This document shows, one piece after another, positions 39,591-49,226 of a DNA stretch of 64,000 nt. Origin of the DNA: Pararhodonellum marinum (GTDB lineage: Bacteria > Bacteroidota > Bacteroidia > Cytophagales > Cyclobacteriaceae); NCBI RefSeq assembly GCF_015354735.1, contig NZ_JACEFJ010000019.1, forward strand, positions 17,093 to 81,092. The letters are read 5' to 3'. The notes beneath the pieces were generated by a model that ran no database searches, was not told where the DNA came from, and worked only from the letters and a program-made list of their open reading frames with translations. The position numbers and the translations under genes are program-made. Numbering within the stretch: position 1 is the first letter of the stretch; each line of letters begins with the position of its first letter.

Positions 39591-42500
39591 TTAATCCTTT
39601 GTTTTTTTAGGATTGGTGAGGGCTTTTTTGATGCCCTCTAAACCCTCTACAAATAGTGACATCTGACCGATGACTTGAGACATCCTGTCCTGATCACCTA
39701 ATCCCCTGATCCGGTTGTTGCGAACGAAGGCCTCTTTGATGGCTTCCCATCGTTTTTGCATGGAAGGATCCAATCTTCCCATCATTTCCGCCAATTTCAA
39801 CAGGTTGGATTCTGCGTCTGAAGTCAGGGTTTGAGACTCATTTTGATAATGGTCCAAAACCAACTGTATGACTTCTTCATCATTGAGGATAGGGACCAGC
39901 ATGCCCATCAATTTGTTCATGTCCCGATAGGAACCCTGCAGCTTAAAGGGAGGTTCAGTCCTGTAGTCATCAGACATGGCAGCAGAAGCAATGTATTGGG
40001 CGTTGACCATGAGAAGCACATCCCTGAGCATGATGGTCATTTGCAAAACTCGGATGCAGTCTTTTATCTCTTGAGCGGAAAGATTGCCTTCCAAATCAGG
40101 CAATTGAGTTTCACCGTTTTCAATGAATTGAATCAGTTTGTATAAATTTTCCATACCAAACTGCGCCATGGATTTCAGATTTTGATTTGAGGTCAATCCA
40201 TTTTCGATCAAACTCAGCTCAAATAACTCTTTCCTATTGGAGGCGGTATCACCCAAGTTGTAAATATCGGCACGGTTGGACAACATGTCCGGGATTTGGA
40301 ATTTGTCCCCGCTTTCTGTGTAGGGATTTCCTGCCATGACTACGCAGAACCGCTTTCCTCTGAAATCATAGGTCTTGGATTGTCCGTTGAATACCCCTTC
40401 GATCTTGCGCTGACCGTCAGCCAGAGAGATGAATTTCTGCAAAAACTCGGGATTGCAATGCTGTATGTCATCCAGATAAAGCATCACATTGTCACTCATC
40501 TCAAAGGCCAGATTTAGTTTTTGTAATTCCTGACGTGTGGCGGCATTTCTTGCTTCTGAAGGATCCACAGAGGTAATTTCATGCCCTATGGAAGGTCCGT
40601 TGATTTTCATAAAGATCAGCCCCAGCCGGTCGGCCACGTATTCCATCAAGGTTGTTTTCCCATACCCGGGGGGAGAAATCAGCAATAGCATTCCTGAACG
40701 ATCTGTGCGCTTATCCAGTCCATAAGCACCAAGCTGCTTGGCGAAGTTGGCCCCGATCATGTTGAAATAGACCTGATTGATCAGTTTGTTCCTCACAAAC
40801 GAAGTCAAGACTTGCGTTTGGAATTCATGCAACCTTAAAGATTGTTTTTTCTCTTCGATTAACTGATGTTTGATTTCTTGAAGTTTCAAAAAGCGAGGCC
40901 TGGCATGTGTTGTAAATTGGTTTAATCTCTTGACAAAGTCATGGTAGTCAAAAAGGTAAACATTAGATTCCTCTTGGCCTATGGGAGCCTTGAGATTTTC
41001 AACTTCGGTCAATCCATTGACAAATAAGACGTTAGGTTGATTTGAACTATGGGTAATAAGCAAAACGGTTAACTCATCCAAAACTCCTTCTGAAACATTT
41101 TCACCATCATTTTCAGCAAAAGTTTCGACCCATTGTCTGCAGAGATGCCATACCTCAGCAGGGTAGGAGGTAATTTCATCCTGGGCATCTTGAAAGGTCA
41201 GGTCTGCATTTTTCGATTTCAGCGATTTTTTAAACGCCTCATGGAGTTCAAAAGCTGATTTTTCACAGACAAAGCCATCAGTGACCTGTTCTTCTGACAA
41301 ATACAAAGCGGATTGAAAGGGGTCGCTTTGTTCAAATAATTTATACTTTTTGGAAAAGCTTTCAATTTTCTCACCCAATAATTTGATGAGATGCTTTTGT
41401 TCTTTGGTTTGGGGAAAAGCTTGTTTGAGCAGGTTGAGAAAAACAAATTGCTTTTTAAAGAACATCTTTTCCTCCGGATCACAGAAATGCCAAAACAATT
41501 GGGCCAAAACCCTTGTCTGAGCGGCAAAACGAAGCAATCCCAAGTCTCTGTCTTTTTCAAGCAATATTTTCAAAAGGACTAAGGCATCATGGTCGTGGAC
41601 ACCTTTGACATATCCTTCTCCGTAATGGCTGGCGATATGACGGTCAATGTGGTTTTTGATCAACGCATCTGTGAGGGCTTGCCGCTTATCCAATGACTCA
41701 AAAATTTTCCATGCCAAATACTCTGAACGGTGCACCTCTTTGTTTTCAGAAGGCAATTCCTGATTCCATACATCCTGAAGTTGGTTGAGTTCCTCTTTAT
41801 TTACAGCTTCATAATAGGATGTGCCGGTCAGGTGATAATGATATTTCCTGTCTCTGACTACCAGTGTCAGATCGAGCTTCTGATTGTTTACAGCAAATCT
41901 AAAATCCCCCAATTTGATGACGTTTTTGCCATCTTCAAACAGCTCATTTTTGTCTTTCAGAGCTCTAATGGCTTCCTGCTGAAGTACCTGAATCTGATTG
42001 AGCAAATCTTCGGACTTGGCTGAATCATCCAGTTTCTGAAGCTGTTTGGCTACATCCCTGACTTTATCCACCATCAGGTCTGCAGCAAAATATCCGTTGA
42101 TTTCTACTTCGGTGGTAAAACTGGCAGCCCTTGATTTGATCCCATTTAGTATACGTTCCGCTGATGCGAAAAGGGAGTTTGTCCTTCGGTTTCTGGCTTC
42201 TGTAAGATTCACCTTTTTGGATTCGAAGGCAGCATAGATGGCTTCCCTCTTTTCTCCGATTTTTTCCACAAACTCGTCAAAATCAGCAAACTTACCCTCT
42301 AGTTCCTCCAGATGTATGGATAATTTGGTCAGGTATTCGTCACATTTGGCAGGTTCGTTAGCCAAGTCAAGATAATTGACGATGGATTGTTCAAACAAGG
42401 TCATCTGAGCTTGAAAATCAGCCCTCGCCTCCTTCTGACCCAATTGTCTTCTTTGGGTGTTGAGGTTGACTCTTTCTTGATTGAGCTGGGCAAAAATCAA

Positions 42501-44471
42501 GGATATGTTTTCTATGATCTGCGTAGAATGAGCCGTATCCTCTACTTTGAGGTTATTGACAATGTCAATCAACATTTCCAGTTGACGGGAAAGGTTGTCA
42601 AACTCCTGTTCCAAAGCCCTGGCATCGATTACTTTGGTAAGCTTCTGTACTGATGCTTTCAAGGTATCCATGCTGGATTGATAGAAATCCAAGGCATCAT
42701 CCTGAAGCAAAAACTGTACACAGGCTTCAGCAAGCTCATCTGCCCGCTCGGCAACTTTTTTTTCCAACTCCTCAACCAAATCTAAATCCACGTACCTAAG
42801 GTTTTTCAGCCCGATGATCTCTCCTCTGATGCTTCTCATTTGTGAAAGCAGGGAGACATACTGATCCAGGCTCTCAAAATTGGCCCTTCTTGTGTCAAAG
42901 ATAATTTTGTCTACTTTTTCTTTGACGGTTTGCAGCGATTTAGCTGTATTTTGTCTGATCTGTACGACTTTTTCAAATTCGTCGATGGCGGAAACAGCGA
43001 TTTCCTTGATCTGCGAAAGCGGCTGCTGCAGGCCAACAGCGCTTCCGTTTTTGAGCCAGAAGTAACCATCAAGAATGCTTTGGCTTCGCCTTTCGAGGTC
43101 TTCATAAAGACCGTTGTAACTGTCTTCCTTGTTGAGCAAAACCACCAGTTCCTGGATTTCCGCCATGGCTTTTACAATATCCCTGTTGCCAATCTTGTAC
43201 AACTCCTTGTCCTTGTAGGCTTCATTTGGGAGCAGTTCTTTGGCATAGGGTGTTTGCCATATCTGGATGAGGTGATGGGTTCCCGGTTCCTTTTCCGTAT
43301 TGAAATAGCAAAGTTCTCCATCAGCAAAAAGGGTATAGCCATTGCAAAATATGGGTGTTTTGACGGTTTGCTCGATTACATTGTAGGAGAGGATGACAAA
43401 GTCATGGTTTTTCTCTTCATAAAAAATAAAAAGGTAATCCTCGCCGTTGGGAGACTGCACCTTTCTAAGGAATTTGACCCCTTCAATTTTCCTGTCAAAC
43501 AGCTTGTATTCCCCGGTCTGTAAATAATATCCATTGGACAGGATGATTCCCTGATGATCCGGCAACAATATGCCTGCGTCCTTGAGGGTGTCTACGCGGA
43601 TGACGTTTTTTACCCTCGAATTAAAAATGAAATACCTGTCACTTTCCAGATAAGGGCGGATTTTTAGTAAAACCAGATTGCCTAGGTCACAAAAATGAAT
43701 TTCAGCATCATCGAGTGACTGGTCTTTCTGTTCGACTTCTTCCGAATAAATACCCAAACCATCATCCGTATTGTCCTCCACTTTAATGGTTAGATTACCA
43801 CTCACGGTTTCTACAAAAACCTTATCCACGATAGAGATATGGGGGTTTTTGCCAGCCCGCTGCATGTCACGGGTGGCCCTGGACCATTCAAATTCGTGCT
43901 GTAAGGGAAATTTGATTTCAGCAGCACTCCGGGAATCAATGTACTGCAATTTTTCATTTTGGATCAACCACTTGAAAGCCTTGATATCTGTAGGACTCTC
44001 AGACAATTGAAATACCATGTACAGGAAATTTCCCGAAACAAAAAAACGGGAAAATTGGGTGTTTCTGTAGAATTTGTAAAGGTTTTGAAGCTCTGCGGCA
44101 AAGGTTTGGTCTTTGATGATATCCAGAGGAAGCGGATGAAATTCATGGTTGTCAAATTTGTAGACATTGAAGACATCGTCCACTTCTAGGACCGTTTTAA
44201 GTCCTAACCGTACGTTATACCCGAATAGGCAGATTCTTCCCACCGAAACAATGTCCCTTGCCATGCAATTGTGCTGGGTCGTGATTCTGATGTTGGACAA
44301 CAATTTGAAATCCACCACCCCAAAAATCAACTGCCGGTCCTGATTAAGGATTTGAAGTTGCTCGATGAGTTCTTGGCGCTGCTGTTGGAGCCTGTTTTGA
44401 ATGATTTCGTAGGTACCTTTTTCTATATTCCTGTCCATATACGGTAAAATCCTAATTCGGTCGTAAGTCAA
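39591..44471 (-). CDS. Giant (1626 aa) coiled-coil-rich protein with C-terminal AAA+ (AAA_5/MoxR-dynein-like) ATPase module
   Basis: A single uninterrupted ORF. Walker A ISPPGYGKTT is encoded at ~40650-40690. Atypical Walker B VMLYLDDIQH. Sensor-like FCVVMAGNP. The N-terminal ~1150 aa are rich in heptad/coiled-coil segments. It is the last gene of the PspA/flotillin operon. Confidence 0.6.
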   Translation of the reverse strand: MTYDRIRILPYMDRNIEKGTYEIIQNRLQQQRQELIEQLQILNQDRQLIFGVVDFKLLSNIRITTQHNCMARDIVSVGRICLFGYNVRLGLKTVLEVDDVFNVYKFDNHEFHPLPLDIIKDQTFAAELQNLYKFYRNTQFSRFFVSGNFLYMVFQLSESPTDIKAFKWLIQNEKLQYIDSRSAAEIKFPLQHEFEWSRATRDMQRAGKNPHISIVDKVFVETVSGNLTIKVEDNTDDGLGIYSEEVEQKDQSLDDAEIHFCDLGNLVLLKIRPYLESDRYFIFNSRVKNVIRVDTLKDAGILLPDHQGIILSNGYYLQTGEYKLFDRKIEGVKFLRKVQSPNGEDYLFIFYEEKNHDFVILSYNVIEQTVKTPIFCNGYTLFADGELCYFNTEKEPGTHHLIQIWQTPYAKELLPNEAYKDKELYKIGNRDIVKAMAEIQELVVLLNKEDSYNGLYEDLERRSQSILDGYFWLKNGSAVGLQQPLSQIKEIAVSAIDEFEKVVQIRQNTAKSLQTVKEKVDKIIFDTRRANFESLDQYVSLLSQMRSIRGEIIGLKNLRYVDLDLVEELEKKVAERADELAEACVQFLLQDDALDFYQSSMDTLKASVQKLTKVIDARALEQEFDNLSRQLEMLIDIVNNLKVEDTAHSTQIIENISLIFAQLNQERVNLNTQRRQLGQKEARADFQAQMTLFEQSIVNYLDLANEPAKCDEYLTKLSIHLEELEGKFADFDEFVEKIGEKREAIYAAFESKKVNLTEARNRRTNSLFASAERILNGIKSRAASFTTEVEINGYFAADLMVDKVRDVAKQLQKLDDSAKSEDLLNQIQVLQQEAIRALKDKNELFEDGKNVIKLGDFRFAVNNQKLDLTLVVRDRKYHYHLTGTSYYEAVNKEELNQLQDVWNQELPSENKEVHRSEYLAWKIFESLDKRQALTDALIKNHIDRHIASHYGEGYVKGVHDHDALVLLKILLEKDRDLGLLRFAAQTRVLAQLFWHFCDPEEKMFFKKQFVFLNLLKQAFPQTKEQKHLIKLLGEKIESFSKKYKLFEQSDPFQSALYLSEEQVTDGFVCEKSAFELHEAFKKSLKSKNADLTFQDAQDEITSYPAEVWHLCRQWVETFAENDGENVSEGVLDELTVLLITHSSNQPNVLFVNGLTEVENLKAPIGQEESNVYLFDYHDFVKRLNQFTTHARPRFLKLQEIKHQLIEEKKQSLRLHEFQTQVLTSFVRNKLINQVYFNMIGANFAKQLGAYGLDKRTDRSGMLLLISPPGYGKTTLMEYVADRLGLIFMKINGPSIGHEITSVDPSEARNAATRQELQKLNLAFEMSDNVMLYLDDIQHCNPEFLQKFISLADGQRKIEGVFNGQSKTYDFRGKRFCVVMAGNPYTESGDKFQIPDMLSNRADIYNLGDTASNRKELFELSLIENGLTSNQNLKSMAQFGMENLYKLIQFIENGETQLPDLEGNLSAQEIKDCIRVLQMTIMLRDVLLMVNAQYIASAAMSDDYRTEPPFKLQGSYRDMNKLMGMLVPILNDEEVIQLVLDHYQNESQTLTSDAESNLLKLAEMMGRLDPSMQKRWEAIKEAFVRNNRIRGLGDQDRMSQVIGQMSLFVEGLEGIKKALTNPKKTKD

Positions 44472-44610
44472 AAATTGTCACCAATAAAATGCCCTTAAAG
44501 ATCATGCTTGGTTTCTGTGGATAATTGAGAGCCGCTGACCTTAGTGAAATTCAGGGCAGAAAACCGCAAATTATCCATACTAAAGTTTTTGAAGGATTAA
44601 AAGGAGGATC

Positions 44611-46638
44611 CTACATGATCCTCCTGTTTTCTACTCCCATCCCTTTGGCTAAATTCAGCATGTTGGTCAAAAAGCCCTTGTCCTGGTCAGAGGCTTTCAT
44701 TTGAATCTGAGCAATCAAAGCGGCAATGGATAGGTTTTTCAAATCCTCAGTCGTTATCCCATACTTATTGGCAATGTTGCGGATTTTTTCCACCAGATCA
44801 TTTGGGGTGTCGTCTTTGCCGTTTTCACCCAAAAAGGCATCTTTGAACTGGGCAACCGTATGGGAGTGTTCCACCATTTTGTCGATTCCTTTTCCGGTTG
44901 ATATTTGCTTGATCAGGTTGTCGAAGAAGGTGTTGTCTCCTCCCACAATATCAATTTTCGCGGTTTTAAATGCTTCTGCAAGCACTTTGGCCTGTGCATC
45001 TGCGATGTCCTTTTGGATACTGATTTGCGCCAATTCCACATCCTTCTCTTTTTGAAGCTTTAGCCTGAATTCTTCGTGTTCCTTACCGGCATCATTCAGT
45101 TGTTTCATGGCTCCGGCTTTTTCATTGATGCCTTTGGCTTCTGCGATGGCTTTTTCTTGGATCACCTCAGCTTCTGCCAAACCTTCTTTACGTTTCGCTT
45201 CCGCTATCTTCTCAATGACTATGGCATCTACCATTCCCTGTCTTTCCAAGGCATCGGCCTTGGCATGCATCACCTGAGCCTCTGACATACCGAGCGTGGC
45301 TTCCTCCTTGGCTTTTGCTTCTGCGATGATTTTTCGGGCATCAGCCTCTTTGTCTGCAGCATCTTTTTTCGCATTGGCCTCAATGATGATTTTGGCAGCT
45401 TCATGTTTGGCTGATTTCTCTTTTGATTCAGCAGCTTTTACTTCTTCAATCAGGTTTTTCTCAGCTTCTTTGGAAGCAATAATCAATGCAACATCTTTTT
45501 GCCTGTTCGCTTCTTTAAGGGCTTCAACATCCTTGATTTTCTCTTGCTCTTCTACCACGGTTTTTTCCATGGCTACCCTTTCTCTTATGGCATCCTGAAT
45601 GTTTTTCTTTTCGATTTCAACTGCTTTTTCTTTTTCGATCTGAGCCAAAGCTACCACTCTTTCTCTTTCAGTTGCTTCGATATCCCGGTCTTTTTTGACC
45701 CTTTCGGTTTCTACTGCCTCGGCCCGTTCTTTGTTCTTTGCCGCAATGATGACTTGCCGCTGTTTGTTTTCTTCCTGGATTTCCAGTTGTTCCTCAGTCC
45801 TGATTCGGACTTCTTCTGACTTGAGTTTTTCCTGAACCGTCACCTTATCGATTTCAGCTTGTTCACGTGCTTTTATGGTCTCAATTTCACGTCTCTGGGA
45901 CTCTTCTTTTTCTTTCAGCTGTTTTTCAAGTTCCAGAATGGCTTCTCTTGCTTCCACATCTTGCTTTTTGATGATTTTTTCCTCGTCTCTGCGGATGAGA
46001 TTTGCTTTGATGTTTTGCGCTGCGGTCAGTTCTGTGATTTTCTTGATACCTTCTGCATCCAGGATATTATCCGAATCCAGGTTCTCGATTTTGGTTTGTT
46101 CCAGGTAATCAATGGCACAATCATCCAGAACATAGCCGTTGAGATCGGTTCCGATGATATCGATGATTTCATCGCGAAATTCCCTTCTTGCTTCATAGAG
46201 TTCTATGAACTCGAATTTTTTACCCACACTTTTCAGTGCTTCAGAAAATTTGGCTTCAAACAGGCTTTCCAAGGTTTCATGGTCAGAAGCCCTGGCACAG
46301 CCTATGGTCTGGGCTACATTGATGATGTCCTGCACGGATTTGTTGACCCTTACAAAAAAGGCCACTTTGATGTCAGCCCTCATGTTGTCTTTACAGATCA
46401 ACCCATCTTTGGTCATCCTTGAAATCTCCAGTTTTTTGACGGAAATATCCATGATTTCTTCTTTATGGAGTATGGGAATTACCATTCCGGCATTGAAGAA
46501 TATCCTTACACCACCCTGACCCGTTCGCACCAACACCCGGCCCTGGCTTACTTTTTTGTACATTGAAATGAGCCACATGAATAGCCCCAATAGCACGATT
46601 ATACTGACTCCTGCTATCACATAAAAAGATTCCATCAT
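44611..46638 (-). CDS. Flotillin family (SPFH/band-7) protein, YqiK-like
   Basis: N-terminal TM, then the SPFH region (YKKVSQGRVLVRTGQGG...). The ~400-aa C-terminal half is a long EA/KE-rich coiled coil, typical of bacterial flotillins. Confidence 0.8.
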   Translation of the reverse strand: MMESFYVIAGVSIIVLLGLFMWLISMYKKVSQGRVLVRTGQGGVRIFFNAGMVIPILHKEEIMDISVKKLEISRMTKDGLICKDNMRADIKVAFFVRVNKSVQDIINVAQTIGCARASDHETLESLFEAKFSEALKSVGKKFEFIELYEARREFRDEIIDIIGTDLNGYVLDDCAIDYLEQTKIENLDSDNILDAEGIKKITELTAAQNIKANLIRRDEEKIIKKQDVEAREAILELEKQLKEKEESQRREIETIKAREQAEIDKVTVQEKLKSEEVRIRTEEQLEIQEENKQRQVIIAAKNKERAEAVETERVKKDRDIEATERERVVALAQIEKEKAVEIEKKNIQDAIRERVAMEKTVVEEQEKIKDVEALKEANRQKDVALIIASKEAEKNLIEEVKAAESKEKSAKHEAAKIIIEANAKKDAADKEADARKIIAEAKAKEEATLGMSEAQVMHAKADALERQGMVDAIVIEKIAEAKRKEGLAEAEVIQEKAIAEAKGINEKAGAMKQLNDAGKEHEEFRLKLQKEKDVELAQISIQKDIADAQAKVLAEAFKTAKIDIVGGDNTFFDNLIKQISTGKGIDKMVEHSHTVAQFKDAFLGENGKDDTPNDLVEKIRNIANKYGITTEDLKNLSIAALIAQIQMKASDQDKGFLTNMLNLAKGMGVENRRIM

Positions 46639-46650
46639 AGTCTAATTGAT

Positions 46651-47277
46651 TTAAAGTTGATATTTTTGAGCTAAGAAATATTTTTTGTCGGAAGACTCCT
46701 CCAAAATGATGACTGTATCATTGAACAGGATAAAATCCCCATCGATGGATTTGGCATAAATCCTTATCACATCATTTTCAATGCTGATTTCTACCTGTCC
46801 GATTTTCTCCTTTCCCATAGGAGAGATTACTTTACCGGTTTTTCCAATAAAATCAATGGCTTCCTCCCCCTTGTGGTTGAAGTGCCCATAAAGCTTTACA
46901 AATGGCCTTGCTACTACCTTGGTAATCAACATGCTGATGACTAATCCGGGGACATAGACAAGAAATCCAAGCAGGCTATCTGAGATTCCCAACAGGGCGG
47001 TGACATTGACGTTGATCAACCACATGCAGAAAATCACAATGGAAAGGATGAACATGATCGGCAACTCACCTATGTAGAGGAATTCCAATACAGCGGACCA
47101 AAATCCCTGGCCATCTGCACTCCCCACTTCTGGATTGTTGATGTCCGCATCTGCCTCAGCCAAATCCAAATCAAAACCAGTAAAGATGATCACCAACCAA
47201 TAAATTAGGATGATGATGGCCAATAGGGTTAGGATGAAGTTGGCAGGGGCAAAAGATATCTCGATGAGTCTTTCCAT
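46651..47277 (-). CDS. NfeD-like membrane protein (YqiJ family) with C-terminal OB-fold
   Basis: An N-terminal multi-TM region plus a C-terminal soluble beta-rich segment (GKTGKVISPMGKEKIGQVEISIENDVIRIYAKSI). It sits 12 nt upstream of the flotillin gene, as in yqiJ-yqiK and NfeD-flotillin pairs. Confidence 0.55.
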   Translation of the reverse strand: MERLIEISFAPANFILTLLAIIILIYWLVIIFTGFDLDLAEADADINNPEVGSADGQGFWSAVLEFLYIGELPIMFILSIVIFCMWLINVNVTALLGISDSLLGFLVYVPGLVISMLITKVVARPFVKLYGHFNHKGEEAIDFIGKTGKVISPMGKEKIGQVEISIENDVIRIYAKSIDGDFILFNDTVIILEESSDKKYFLAQKYQL

Positions 47278-47348: not shown

Positions 47349-48041
47349 TTAAAGGCCCATGTCCTTTTTCATCTGTGCCAATTCATCCTCCACCGATAAG
47401 TCCTCCAAGGCTTTCTTGAGCTTTTCCTCATGGGTGATGCTACTTTGGGCCATTTCCCCATAAGCTTGAGCCAATGCTTCATCCTGAGCCACCTTGTTTT
47501 TCATTCTTTCAAGCATAGATACTACACTTGTGCTGTCCATATTGGTCATCTGCTTGTTGATTTTTTGGGTTGCACTGCTGACTTTGATTCTTGCCCTCAA
47601 AGTGCCCAATTCATTTTCCCATTGGTGGATGCCGGCTTTGATCCGGTTCACATTTTGTTCCAGTGTGGCCACCTGCTTTTCAAGATTGCTCACTTCCTCT
47701 TTGATGAGCACGATCTCTTGGCTGATGCTGGCCTTTCTTCTTAGGTTTTCTTTGACCAAAGTGTCCGCTTCAGCACTGTCGATTTCACCTTGTTGGGCTT
47801 TTTTCAACAAGATCACAGATTTATTCTGTAGGTCTGTCTCGGTATTGAGGTGCTCATTGAGGTCTTTTGTCCTGCGAATGTGCATGGCTTTCACCTCAGC
47901 CAAAGCCTTCACAGCTTTGTCTTTGTTTTCGTTCATGTCCCGAAGCCCCTGCTCAATCATTTTGATAGGGTCTTCTAGTTTGTCAATGGCAGAATTGGTT
48001 TCCGCTTGTCCTATTTTGAATAATCTTCTTAAAACGTTCAT
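47349..48041 (-). CDS. PspA/IM30 family protein (Vipp1/ESCRT-III-like; YjfJ-like)
   Basis: The N-terminal ...AIDKLEDPIKMIEQGLRDM... is the PspA signature. The protein is all-helical with coiled coils and is 230 aa. Confidence 0.85.
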   Translation of the reverse strand: MNVLRRLFKIGQAETNSAIDKLEDPIKMIEQGLRDMNENKDKAVKALAEVKAMHIRRTKDLNEHLNTETDLQNKSVILLKKAQQGEIDSAEADTLVKENLRRKASISQEIVLIKEEVSNLEKQVATLEQNVNRIKAGIHQWENELGTLRARIKVSSATQKINKQMTNMDSTSVVSMLERMKNKVAQDEALAQAYGEMAQSSITHEEKLKKALEDLSVEDELAQMKKDMGL

Positions 48042-48053
48042 GTTTGTACCGGT

Positions 48054-48443
48054 TTATTTTGAAAATGACAATATTTCGTTTGAATATTCAGAGAGCAATA
48101 GGCCCAGAGAATTGATGGTGCTCTCCAATTCTTTGAGGTCCAAGGTCTCCGCTTGCAATGTATTTCTGAAAATAACCTTTCGGCCGGTTTCATCCAATAC
48201 AAATGCCCCATGCACAATGTCCCTGTTCTTGATCAGCAACTGCTTGTAGATGTTGGCTTCATCTTTCAGATCAAACAGGTACTGCTCAATGATTACTATG
48301 GGGGTGGCTACCCCGATCACCATGTTCTTGACCCCGATATCCTCGTTCTCGATGACCAATAAATTATCGGCCTCGTTTTCATATTGAATTACCGACCCAA
48401 GTTCCAAAGCAAATTCCTTTACGACTTTAAAATATTTATCCAT
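48054..48443 (-). CDS. YbjN/DUF2170-like (YjfI-like) small cytoplasmic protein
   Basis: 129 aa, acidic, with no TM. Its position as the first gene, 12 nt upstream of the PspA homolog, mirrors E. coli yjfI-yjfJ. The assignment is from context and size, not a motif. Confidence 0.4.
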   Translation of the reverse strand: MDKYFKVVKEFALELGSVIQYENEADNLLVIENEDIGVKNMVIGVATPIVIIEQYLFDLKDEANIYKQLLIKNRDIVHGAFVLDETGRKVIFRNTLQAETLDLKELESTINSLGLLLSEYSNEILSFSK

Positions 48444-48525: not shown

Positions 48526-48565
48526 TGCAAATAATATTAGCTATTTTTTGCTAATTTTATTTGCA
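48526..48565. promoter_or_regulatory. Imperfect 16-bp inverted repeat (candidate operator) in the divergent promoter region
   Basis: TGCAAATAATATTAGC-N8-GCTAATTTTATTTGCA, with 15 of 16 positions complementary. It lies 26-65 bp upstream of the XRE regulator ATG and ~80-120 bp upstream of the operon's first gene. Confidence 0.45.
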
Positions 48566-48590
48566 ATATTTATTACTTATCTTTACTGCC

Positions 48591-49226
48591 ATGTCAAAAT
48601 ACGGAAAGAACATCAAAAAAATCCGCAGTGTAAGAGGCCTTACCCAGGCCCAACTCGCTGAAATGCTAGAGGTCAGCAGGGGTGTCATCAGTTCTTATGA
48701 AGAGGGAAGAGCCGAACCAAAAATCGAAACCATTTTAAAAACGGCTGAAGTTTTCCACCTCTCTACAGACATCCTACTTTCCAGCAATGTGACCGTCAAT
48801 CAGTTGAGTGGATTTAATCTTCCTGATTTGTTAGGTAATCAGGAAGAAAAGTCTGTAAAACTTGAGGAACTTAAACTATCCTCTCATTTATTTCCTGAAA
48901 ACATTTGTTTGTTTCCGAGTTATCAAATAAAAGCAAATCACTACCTTCAAGCAAATGACATCGTATTTGCCCTGCCTGCACAGCCTGTAAAGGAAAAACT
49001 GGTAGTAATGAAATTGGCTAGTGGATATGTGATTGGGAAAATAAAGGCTATCAAAGAAAAGCATATTACCTTGGATGATGAACAATATTCCAATGAGGAA
49101 ATTTCCGATGTTTATGAAATCACCGGATTTTATAGTCCTTATTCGGATAAATCATCCTTGGAAAATAAATTGCAAGAGCTTGAAAAAAGGATAATAGAAT
49201 TAGAACGACGGACAGAAAGCCAATAA
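48591..49226 (+). CDS. XRE-family HTH transcriptional regulator with C-terminal coiled coil
   Basis: The N-terminal IRSVRGLTQAQLAEMLEVSRGVISSYEEGRAEP is a Cro/C1-type HTH. The C-terminus has LENKLQELEKRIIELERR. Start taken at the ATG at 48591; the track starts at a TTG at 48561. Confidence 0.7.
   Translation: MSKYGKNIKKIRSVRGLTQAQLAEMLEVSRGVISSYEEGRAEPKIETILKTAEVFHLSTDILLSSNVTVNQLSGFNLPDLLGNQEEKSVKLEELKLSSHLFPENICLFPSYQIKANHYLQANDIVFALPAQPVKEKLVVMKLASGYVIGKIKAIKEKHITLDDEQYSNEEISDVYEITGFYSPYSDKSSLENKLQELEKRIIELERRTESQ

Follow-up and report, generated by a model that had tools for sequence, protein, structure and literature searches.

SPFH-family cages are combined with AAA+ machines at the membrane in FtsH–HflK/C and, more loosely, in prohibitin–m-AAA and erlin–p97. 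The AAA+ protein Vps4 of archaea and eukaryotes is genetically coupled to a polymer of the ESCRT-III superfamily, which it turns over at membranes; PspA belongs to the same superfamily, and reviews note that bacterial PspA has no known Vps4-like ATPase (PMC7619361). A flotillin SPFH protein forms a closed 44-mer cage or dome (PMC13000311), a 24-mer SPFH cage is cited in PMC10936438, and in B. subtilis an SPFH protein brings PspA to the membrane (PMC8581546). An operon of PspA, CesT/Tir, flotillin, YqiJ and an AAA+ protein has been described in silico (Ravi et al. 2024).

Here we analyzed a 64,000-nucleotide stretch of Pararhodonellum marinum DNA (the window), which contains an operon of this same family: all five components and a divergent HTH gene are present, and we found no essential difference from the published one. 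This operon is no new kind of system; the family is already catalogued, and the ATPase is a new member of a known, uncharacterized family. Beyond the earlier description, our analysis provides a domain map, a MoxR-like placement of the AAA+ module based on its predicted structure, the invariance of an unusual Walker B motif (DD), and counts that compare linkage to flotillin/YqiJ with linkage to PspA. The operon, which the original prediction for this DNA had missed, is the decisive evidence. From this gene context, from which all functional statements on the family derive, we consider it somewhat probable that the product of this gene is the ATPase subunit in a conserved module for maintenance of the cytoplasmic membrane, in which it would remodel flotillin/NfeD (and PspA) scaffolds.

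The ATPase gene, its operon and their conservation

The giant ATPase is encoded by a single unbroken minus-strand open reading frame at 39591..44471 (-), which comprises 1626 codons when counted from the TTG at 44471. The real start is probably the ATG at 44438, 33 nt downstream, where the protein opens with MDRNIEKGTYEIIQ, because homologues and an identical NCBI protein begin there; the gene would then span 39591..44438 (-) and encode 1,615 aa plus stop. This NCBI entry, a 1615-aa "DNA repair ATPase" of Pararhodonellum marinum, is 100% identical to the window protein. Pfam assigns DUF3686 (E=5e-183), DUF7902 (E=2e-23) and a C-terminal AAA domain (E=6e-8), an architecture that is colinear across about 1600 aa, and sequence searches returned thousands of homologues, so that the family resemblance lies, by these scores, far beyond chance. 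We aligned 73 divergent full-length family sequences (the query and 72 representatives) and used this set for all conservation counts of motifs. Since the frame is colinear and nearly indel-free against the 72 representatives, it is neither a fusion of two genes nor a frameshift artefact, which settles the doubt attached to the original prediction that a sequencing error might have interrupted it.

At 50% identity, the family falls into no fewer than 350 clusters (E<1e-30), and it is present in at least 590 species of many phyla, among them Bacteroidota, Planctomycetota, Verrucomicrobiota, Acidobacteriota, Myxococcota, Gammaproteobacteria, Actinomycetota and Deinococcota. Experimentally tractable carriers include Chryseobacterium, Proteus mirabilis, Vibrio campbellii, Lysobacter, Streptomyces and the P. 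fluorescens plasmid pQBR103. An NCBIfam search gave zero matches for the ATPase, flotillin-like and YqiJ-like proteins, and a literature search on DUF3686, PF12458 and "DNA repair ATPase" found no paper on the ATPase and no experimental study.

In the window, the ATPase gene is the last of five same-strand genes in the order CesT/Tir–PspA–YqiJ-like–flotillin-like–ATPase, separated by 12, 71, 12 and 172 nt. The operon opens with a gene for a CesT/Tir-like chaperone (129 aa, 48054..48443 (-); CesT_Tir_1, E=1.5e-51), followed by that for PspA/IM30 (230 aa, 47349..48041 (-); PspA_IM30, E=1.5e-36). A weak SMC match in our searches belongs to this PspA, not to the ATPase. The C-terminus of PspA carries a conserved motif, [DE]xLxxLKxxLG, which we considered as a docking peptide resembling the MIM of the Vps4 system and set aside: E. 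coli PspA ends in the same motif, and E. coli is not known to have such an ATPase. The third gene (208 aa, 46651..47277 (-)) encodes a YqiJ/NfeD-like membrane protein with about three transmembrane segments and a C-terminal beta-rich domain; its match to YqiJ_N (E=0.002) lies below Pfam's cut-off, and its database name is 'OB-fold-containig protein'. An XRE-type regulator gene (48561..49226 (+); HTH_3, E=2e-12) is divergent from the operon; its open reading frame encodes 221 aa, and the NCBI annotation gives 211 aa.

Directly upstream of the ATPase gene lies the gene for a flotillin-like SPFH scaffold protein (675 aa, 44611..46638 (-)), which consists of an N-terminal transmembrane segment (aa 1-31), an SPFH-like domain, a long Glu/Ala/Lys-rich helix and a conserved C-terminal domain. 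Because Pfam and PDB sequence searches with the 675-aa protein itself returned no match, its SPFH identity was established indirectly: two of 25 orthologues match Pfam Band_7 (best E=3.3e-13), a profile search matches QmcA (E=0.0025), and the source databases name it 'flotillin family protein' (NCBI) and 'YqiK' (IMG). It is 44% identical to the neighbor protein in Lysobacter. A 9-bp GC-rich stem-loop followed by TTTTAA (44602..44625 (-)) overlaps the flotillin stop codon and may terminate part of the transcription between the two genes.

Neighborhoods were counted in those 67 related loci for which 6 kb or more of upstream sequence was available. Retrieval was of the 80 loci that most resemble the query, and the resulting proportions are therefore skewed to Bacteroidota and PVC lineages. 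A flotillin-like gene lies directly upstream of the ATPase gene, on the same strand, in 65/67 loci, and a YqiJ-like gene is present in 63/67; PspA occurs in 41/67, CesT in 38/67, the divergent HTH gene in 40/67 and the full six-gene layout in 37/67. By these counts, linkage of the ATPase to PspA is looser than that to flotillin/YqiJ. In PVC phyla, Streptomyces, Deinococcus and two further contigs, the triad YqiJ–flotillin–ATPase occurs without an adjacent PspA gene; in Lysobacter it is accompanied by DUF2170-PspA and a PLD gene, and on plasmid pQBR103 it is preceded by a polyamine operon. Two observations count against a common scaffold module. The remaining two of the 67 loci have no upstream flotillin gene, and the flotillin-ATPase gap often holds unrelated inserted genes or a terminator-like hairpin (many of the orthologous gaps contain a similar hairpin, as counted without shuffle control), so the ATPase may be partly independently expressed, at a different level.

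Predicted architecture and catalytic motifs of the ATPase

Pfam and the predicted fold agree with the original prediction that this is a giant protein with an AAA+ module, and a single one, near its C-terminus. The coiled coil of ~1150 aa that had been proposed for the N-terminal part did not hold up: AlphaFold2 models (pLDDT 83.6 and 87.0) and Foldseek divide this part into a propeller, long helices, a beta domain and globular helices. After a long N-terminal helix (aa 9-39, 44322..44414 (-); H9-39, pLDDT about 86-91), aa 45-395 (43254..44306 (-)) are predicted to form about 28 strands, nearly free of helices, at the core of DUF3686 (aa 23-460). In Foldseek, this segment matched 7-bladed propellers, namely the DCAF1 WDR domain (E=1.6e-6), Vps18, prolyl oligopeptidase, YncE and KLHDC3. 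Beta-propellers are typical protein-docking domains.

The long-helix region (aa 412-832, 41943..43205 (-)) is modeled as helices of 15-58 residues, the longest being H471-515, H635-692 and H721-771; it includes Pfam DUF7902 (aa 581-665, 42444..42698) and is essentially free of indels among the 73 sequences. Both heptad examples cited in the original prediction are present (aa 610-637 and 800-839), while the extent claimed for them is not: scored against shuffles, only aa 485-513, 575-636, 700-727 and 783-813 are heptad-positive, about 9% of residues, and all four segments fall inside aa 412-832, the sole heptad-like part. This score is crude and left the flotillin helix unflagged, so coiled coils are probably under-called. 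Further downstream, AlphaFold2 places a small beta domain of five strands (aa 840-878, 41805..41921 (-); pLDDT 51-77) and a globular domain of ten short helices (aa ~949-1129, 41052..41594 (-); slice H19-199, pLDDT mostly >90), just before which lies the main indel hot-spot of the family (aa 921-940). The linker to the ATPase, delimited by AlphaFold2 and conservation (aa 1143-1236, 40731..41012 (-)), comprises a pair of short strands and two helices, one of 36 residues and one pre-AAA helix with the motif FVRNKLIN; its profile alignment to the N-linker region of Rix7/NVL is weak. We found no transmembrane or obvious membrane-binding segment in the ATPase, which counts against a role at the membrane.

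The AAA+ module consists, in the predicted structure, of the alpha/beta core (aa 1240-1394, 40257..40721 (-)) and a helical lid with the C-terminal helical region (aa 1395-1608, 39615..40256 (-)), as expected of an AAA+ fold and not of a kinase or GTPase. The lid region carries a conserved motif, RxEPPFxLQGSYR (aa 1493-1505, 39924..39962). Motif search and family alignment confirmed the Walker A motif ISPPGYGKTT (aa 1254-1263, 40650..40679 (-)), which contains the only GK[ST] P-loop of the protein; SPPGYGKT (aa 1255-1262) is invariant in 73/73 sequences, with Ser in place of the first Gly of canonical GxxxxGK[ST]. The Walker B motif MLYLDDIQH (aa 1319-1327, 40458..40484 (-)) is likewise as originally read. 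In the model, MLYLDD closes beta3, with Asp instead of Glu as its second acidic residue; D1323, D1324, Q1326 and H1327 are each found in 73/73 sequences.

A beta-hairpin is predicted at aa 1345-1358 (40365..40406 (-); slice E415-420 and E423-428), in the pre-sensor-1 position ahead of beta4 (E434-440). The arginine-finger-like context that had been noted corresponds to VVMAGNPY...NRADI within VVMAGNPYTESGDKFQIPDMLSNRADI (aa 1366-1392, 40263..40343 (-)), where alignment and model place the predicted sensor-1 strand and arginine-finger helix; N1371 and R1389, each 73/73, occupy the sensor-1 and arginine-finger positions of the predicted secondary structure. With DD invariant in 73/73 divergent full-length members and all other catalytic motifs intact in sequence, the alignment indicates that the DD Walker B is a family trait, a variant and not a loss. 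Slow or regulated hydrolysis, as the original prediction suggested, would be a plausible consequence. E. coli DnaA, a slow-hydrolyzing, switch-like AAA+ protein, has a Walker B that ends in DD followed by IQ(F), like LDDIQH of the ATPase.

Placement among AAA+ clades

The AAA+ clade cannot be assigned from sequence alone. AAA_5 reaches 29.2 bits (E=1e-6), slightly over its cut-off of 22, and does not outscore generic AAA (33.6 bits); AAA_3 did not match the ATPase in Pfam. PDB sequence searches found no solved homologue of the ATPase, only weak matches in the P-loop region to p97, NVL, Rix7 and RuvB (best E=3e-4 with the single protein, 2e-3 with the 73-sequence family profile). Comparison of the predicted structure shows the module to be akin to MoxR-type AAA+ ATPases, with the MoxR family (CbbQ/NorQ/RavA) as the closest fold and the pre-sensor-1 beta-hairpin present; DNA-acting AAA+ proteins score well below MoxR proteins.

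The sequence identity to CbbQ (PDB 6l1q) and NorQ (PDB 9qh4) is just 14-15%, and MoxR proteins have DE in Walker B instead of the DD found here. MoxR systems pair an ATPase of ~300 aa with a VWA/MIDAS adaptor. The ATPase differs from CbbQ/NorQ in 1,240 extra N-terminal residues and in its partners, SPFH, NfeD and PspA proteins; no VWA match was found among the operon proteins, nor among the genes listed for eight further loci. The lack of a VWA/MIDAS partner, as used by the nearest structural relatives MoxR, CbbQ and NorQ, counts against the function that we favor. Midasin and dynein (Pfam AAA_5) have six concatenated AAA+ modules, whereas the ATPase has one, with no stalk inserted in it and no MIDAS domain. 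FtsH, an AAA+ protease of the classical clade, is anchored in the membrane; the ATPase is soluble, free of a protease domain and MoxR-like in its predicted fold. STAND NTPases (NACHT/NB-ARC with WD40) carry their propeller C-terminally, while the propeller of the ATPase is N-terminal and its fold is AAA+; matches to STAND models covered only the P-loop (nSTAND3, E=1; NPHP3_N, E=0.013).

Possible functions

The closest competitor to remodelling of the flotillin/NfeD scaffold, and a rather unlikely one in our judgment, is a PspA-specific disassemblase, a Vps4 counterpart whose substrate would be the ESCRT-III-like PspA polymer, with flotillin and YqiJ serving only as a membrane platform. Here, as in Vps4–ESCRT-III, an AAA+ protein is genetically coupled to an ESCRT-III-superfamily polymer, and both would share the proposed role of turning over polymers at membranes. 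PspA shares the operon with its CesT/Tir chaperone in the window and recurs at 41 of the 67 loci, Ravi et al. liken PspA-linked AAA+ ATPases to Vps4, and a 2025 review lists bacteria as having no known Vps4 (PMC7619361). The ATPase lacks the N-terminal MIT domain and the classical-clade AAA module with aromatic pore loop that define Vps4: its pore-loop-1 position reads GPSIGHEITSVDP, without the aromatic residue that threading AAA+ unfoldases have there, and a Vps4-like threading mechanism is therefore unsupported, which counts against the function that we favor as well.

Another alternative is a chaperone of the classical MoxR type, which would mature or activate one particular enzyme complex; CbbQ acts in this way on Rubisco, and NorQ on NO reductase. 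This is improbable given the missing VWA gene in the window operon and the other loci inspected, the large N-terminal extension, the lack of a conserved candidate client enzyme nearby, and a gene context that already indicates SPFH/NfeD partners and not a VWA protein or enzyme.

We regard as quite improbable that the locus is an anti-phage or conflict system, in which a very large NTPase, sensing through its propeller, would drive membrane-based abortive infection through a membrane effector module (in Proteobacteria, a PLD-type effector). The architecture loosely resembles propeller-bearing defence NTPases, the adjacent HTH_3 protein matches the PADLOC regulator models HTH_VI and CapH, the ATPase gene of Lysobacter is followed by one for a PLD (HKD) protein, the flotillin-ATPase gap is an insertion hot-spot, and PspA is named after phage shock. 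However, PADLOC models matched neither the flotillin-like nor the YqiJ-like protein, the ATPase gave a single match, confined to the P-loop (E=0.003), and PspA matched coiled-coil models only; the fold is of AAA+/MoxR and not STAND type. The family is colinear at 27-45% identity over many phyla, unlike fast-evolving defence genes, phage records gave no match, 13 out of 72,556 plasmid records carried it (for the most part megaplasmids or chromids), and base composition at the operon is no outlier within the window. In these searches, the ATPase is connected neither with mobile elements nor with known defence systems.

The database label "DNA repair ATPase" is without supporting evidence, and action on DNA is highly improbable: Pfam searches found no DNA-binding, nuclease or helicase domain in the ATPase, no DNA-repair gene recurs as a neighbor in the loci examined, DNA-acting AAA+ proteins score far lower than MoxR proteins, and no paper from our literature search ties DUF3686/PF12458 to DNA repair. 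Equally hard to credit, and largely refuted by the structure predictions, is the SMC- or dynein-stalk-like mechanochemical motor that the original prediction preferred to MoxR, since the single P-loop and the absence of an LSGG signature exclude an ABC/SMC head, the protein has one AAA+ module and not six, with a spacing of 60 residues between Walker A and Walker B in its core, the helices of aa 412-832 precede this module and do not emerge from it, and about 350 aa of the claimed coiled coil are predicted beta-propeller and about 250 aa globular.

We therefore return to the membrane-maintenance module. Its invariant core would consist of the YqiJ/NfeD-like membrane protein, the flotillin-like SPFH scaffold and the ATPase, to which Bacteroidota and some Gammaproteobacteria add the CesT/Tir-like chaperone, PspA and the divergent HTH regulator. 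Together with its NfeD-like partner, the SPFH protein would build an oligomeric cage or microdomain at the inner face of the membrane. The CesT/Tir-like chaperone may keep PspA until it is needed, upon which PspA would polymerize at this site and seal or reshape damaged membrane. The ATPase would oligomerize, presumably as a hexamer, through its single C-terminal MoxR-like AAA+ module; the N-terminal beta-propeller may grip the scaffold proteins, flotillin or PspA, while the long-helix region would hold it off the ring. ATP would be spent on the scaffold polymers in a direction that may be assembly, remodelling or recycling, which would make Vps4 acting on ESCRT-III and FtsH inside HflK/C cages functional analogues.

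More tentatively, the family could be the missing ATP-driven recycling factor, a MoxR-derived hexamer that would use its propellers to grip flotillin/NfeD cages and, where present, PspA/ESCRT-III polymers, and would dismantle or reshape them; this is possible, although we would not call it probable. If true, it would represent an independent bacterial solution to the job that Vps4 performs in archaea and eukaryotes, and the invariant DD Walker B would make the ATPase a slow, partner-triggered switch. The name 'DNA repair ATPase' hides from membrane biologists a family that is almost always encoded just behind a flotillin/NfeD pair and that is a candidate for two questions, namely a Vps4-like ATPase for PspA and the assembly and turnover of flotillin cages in bacteria.

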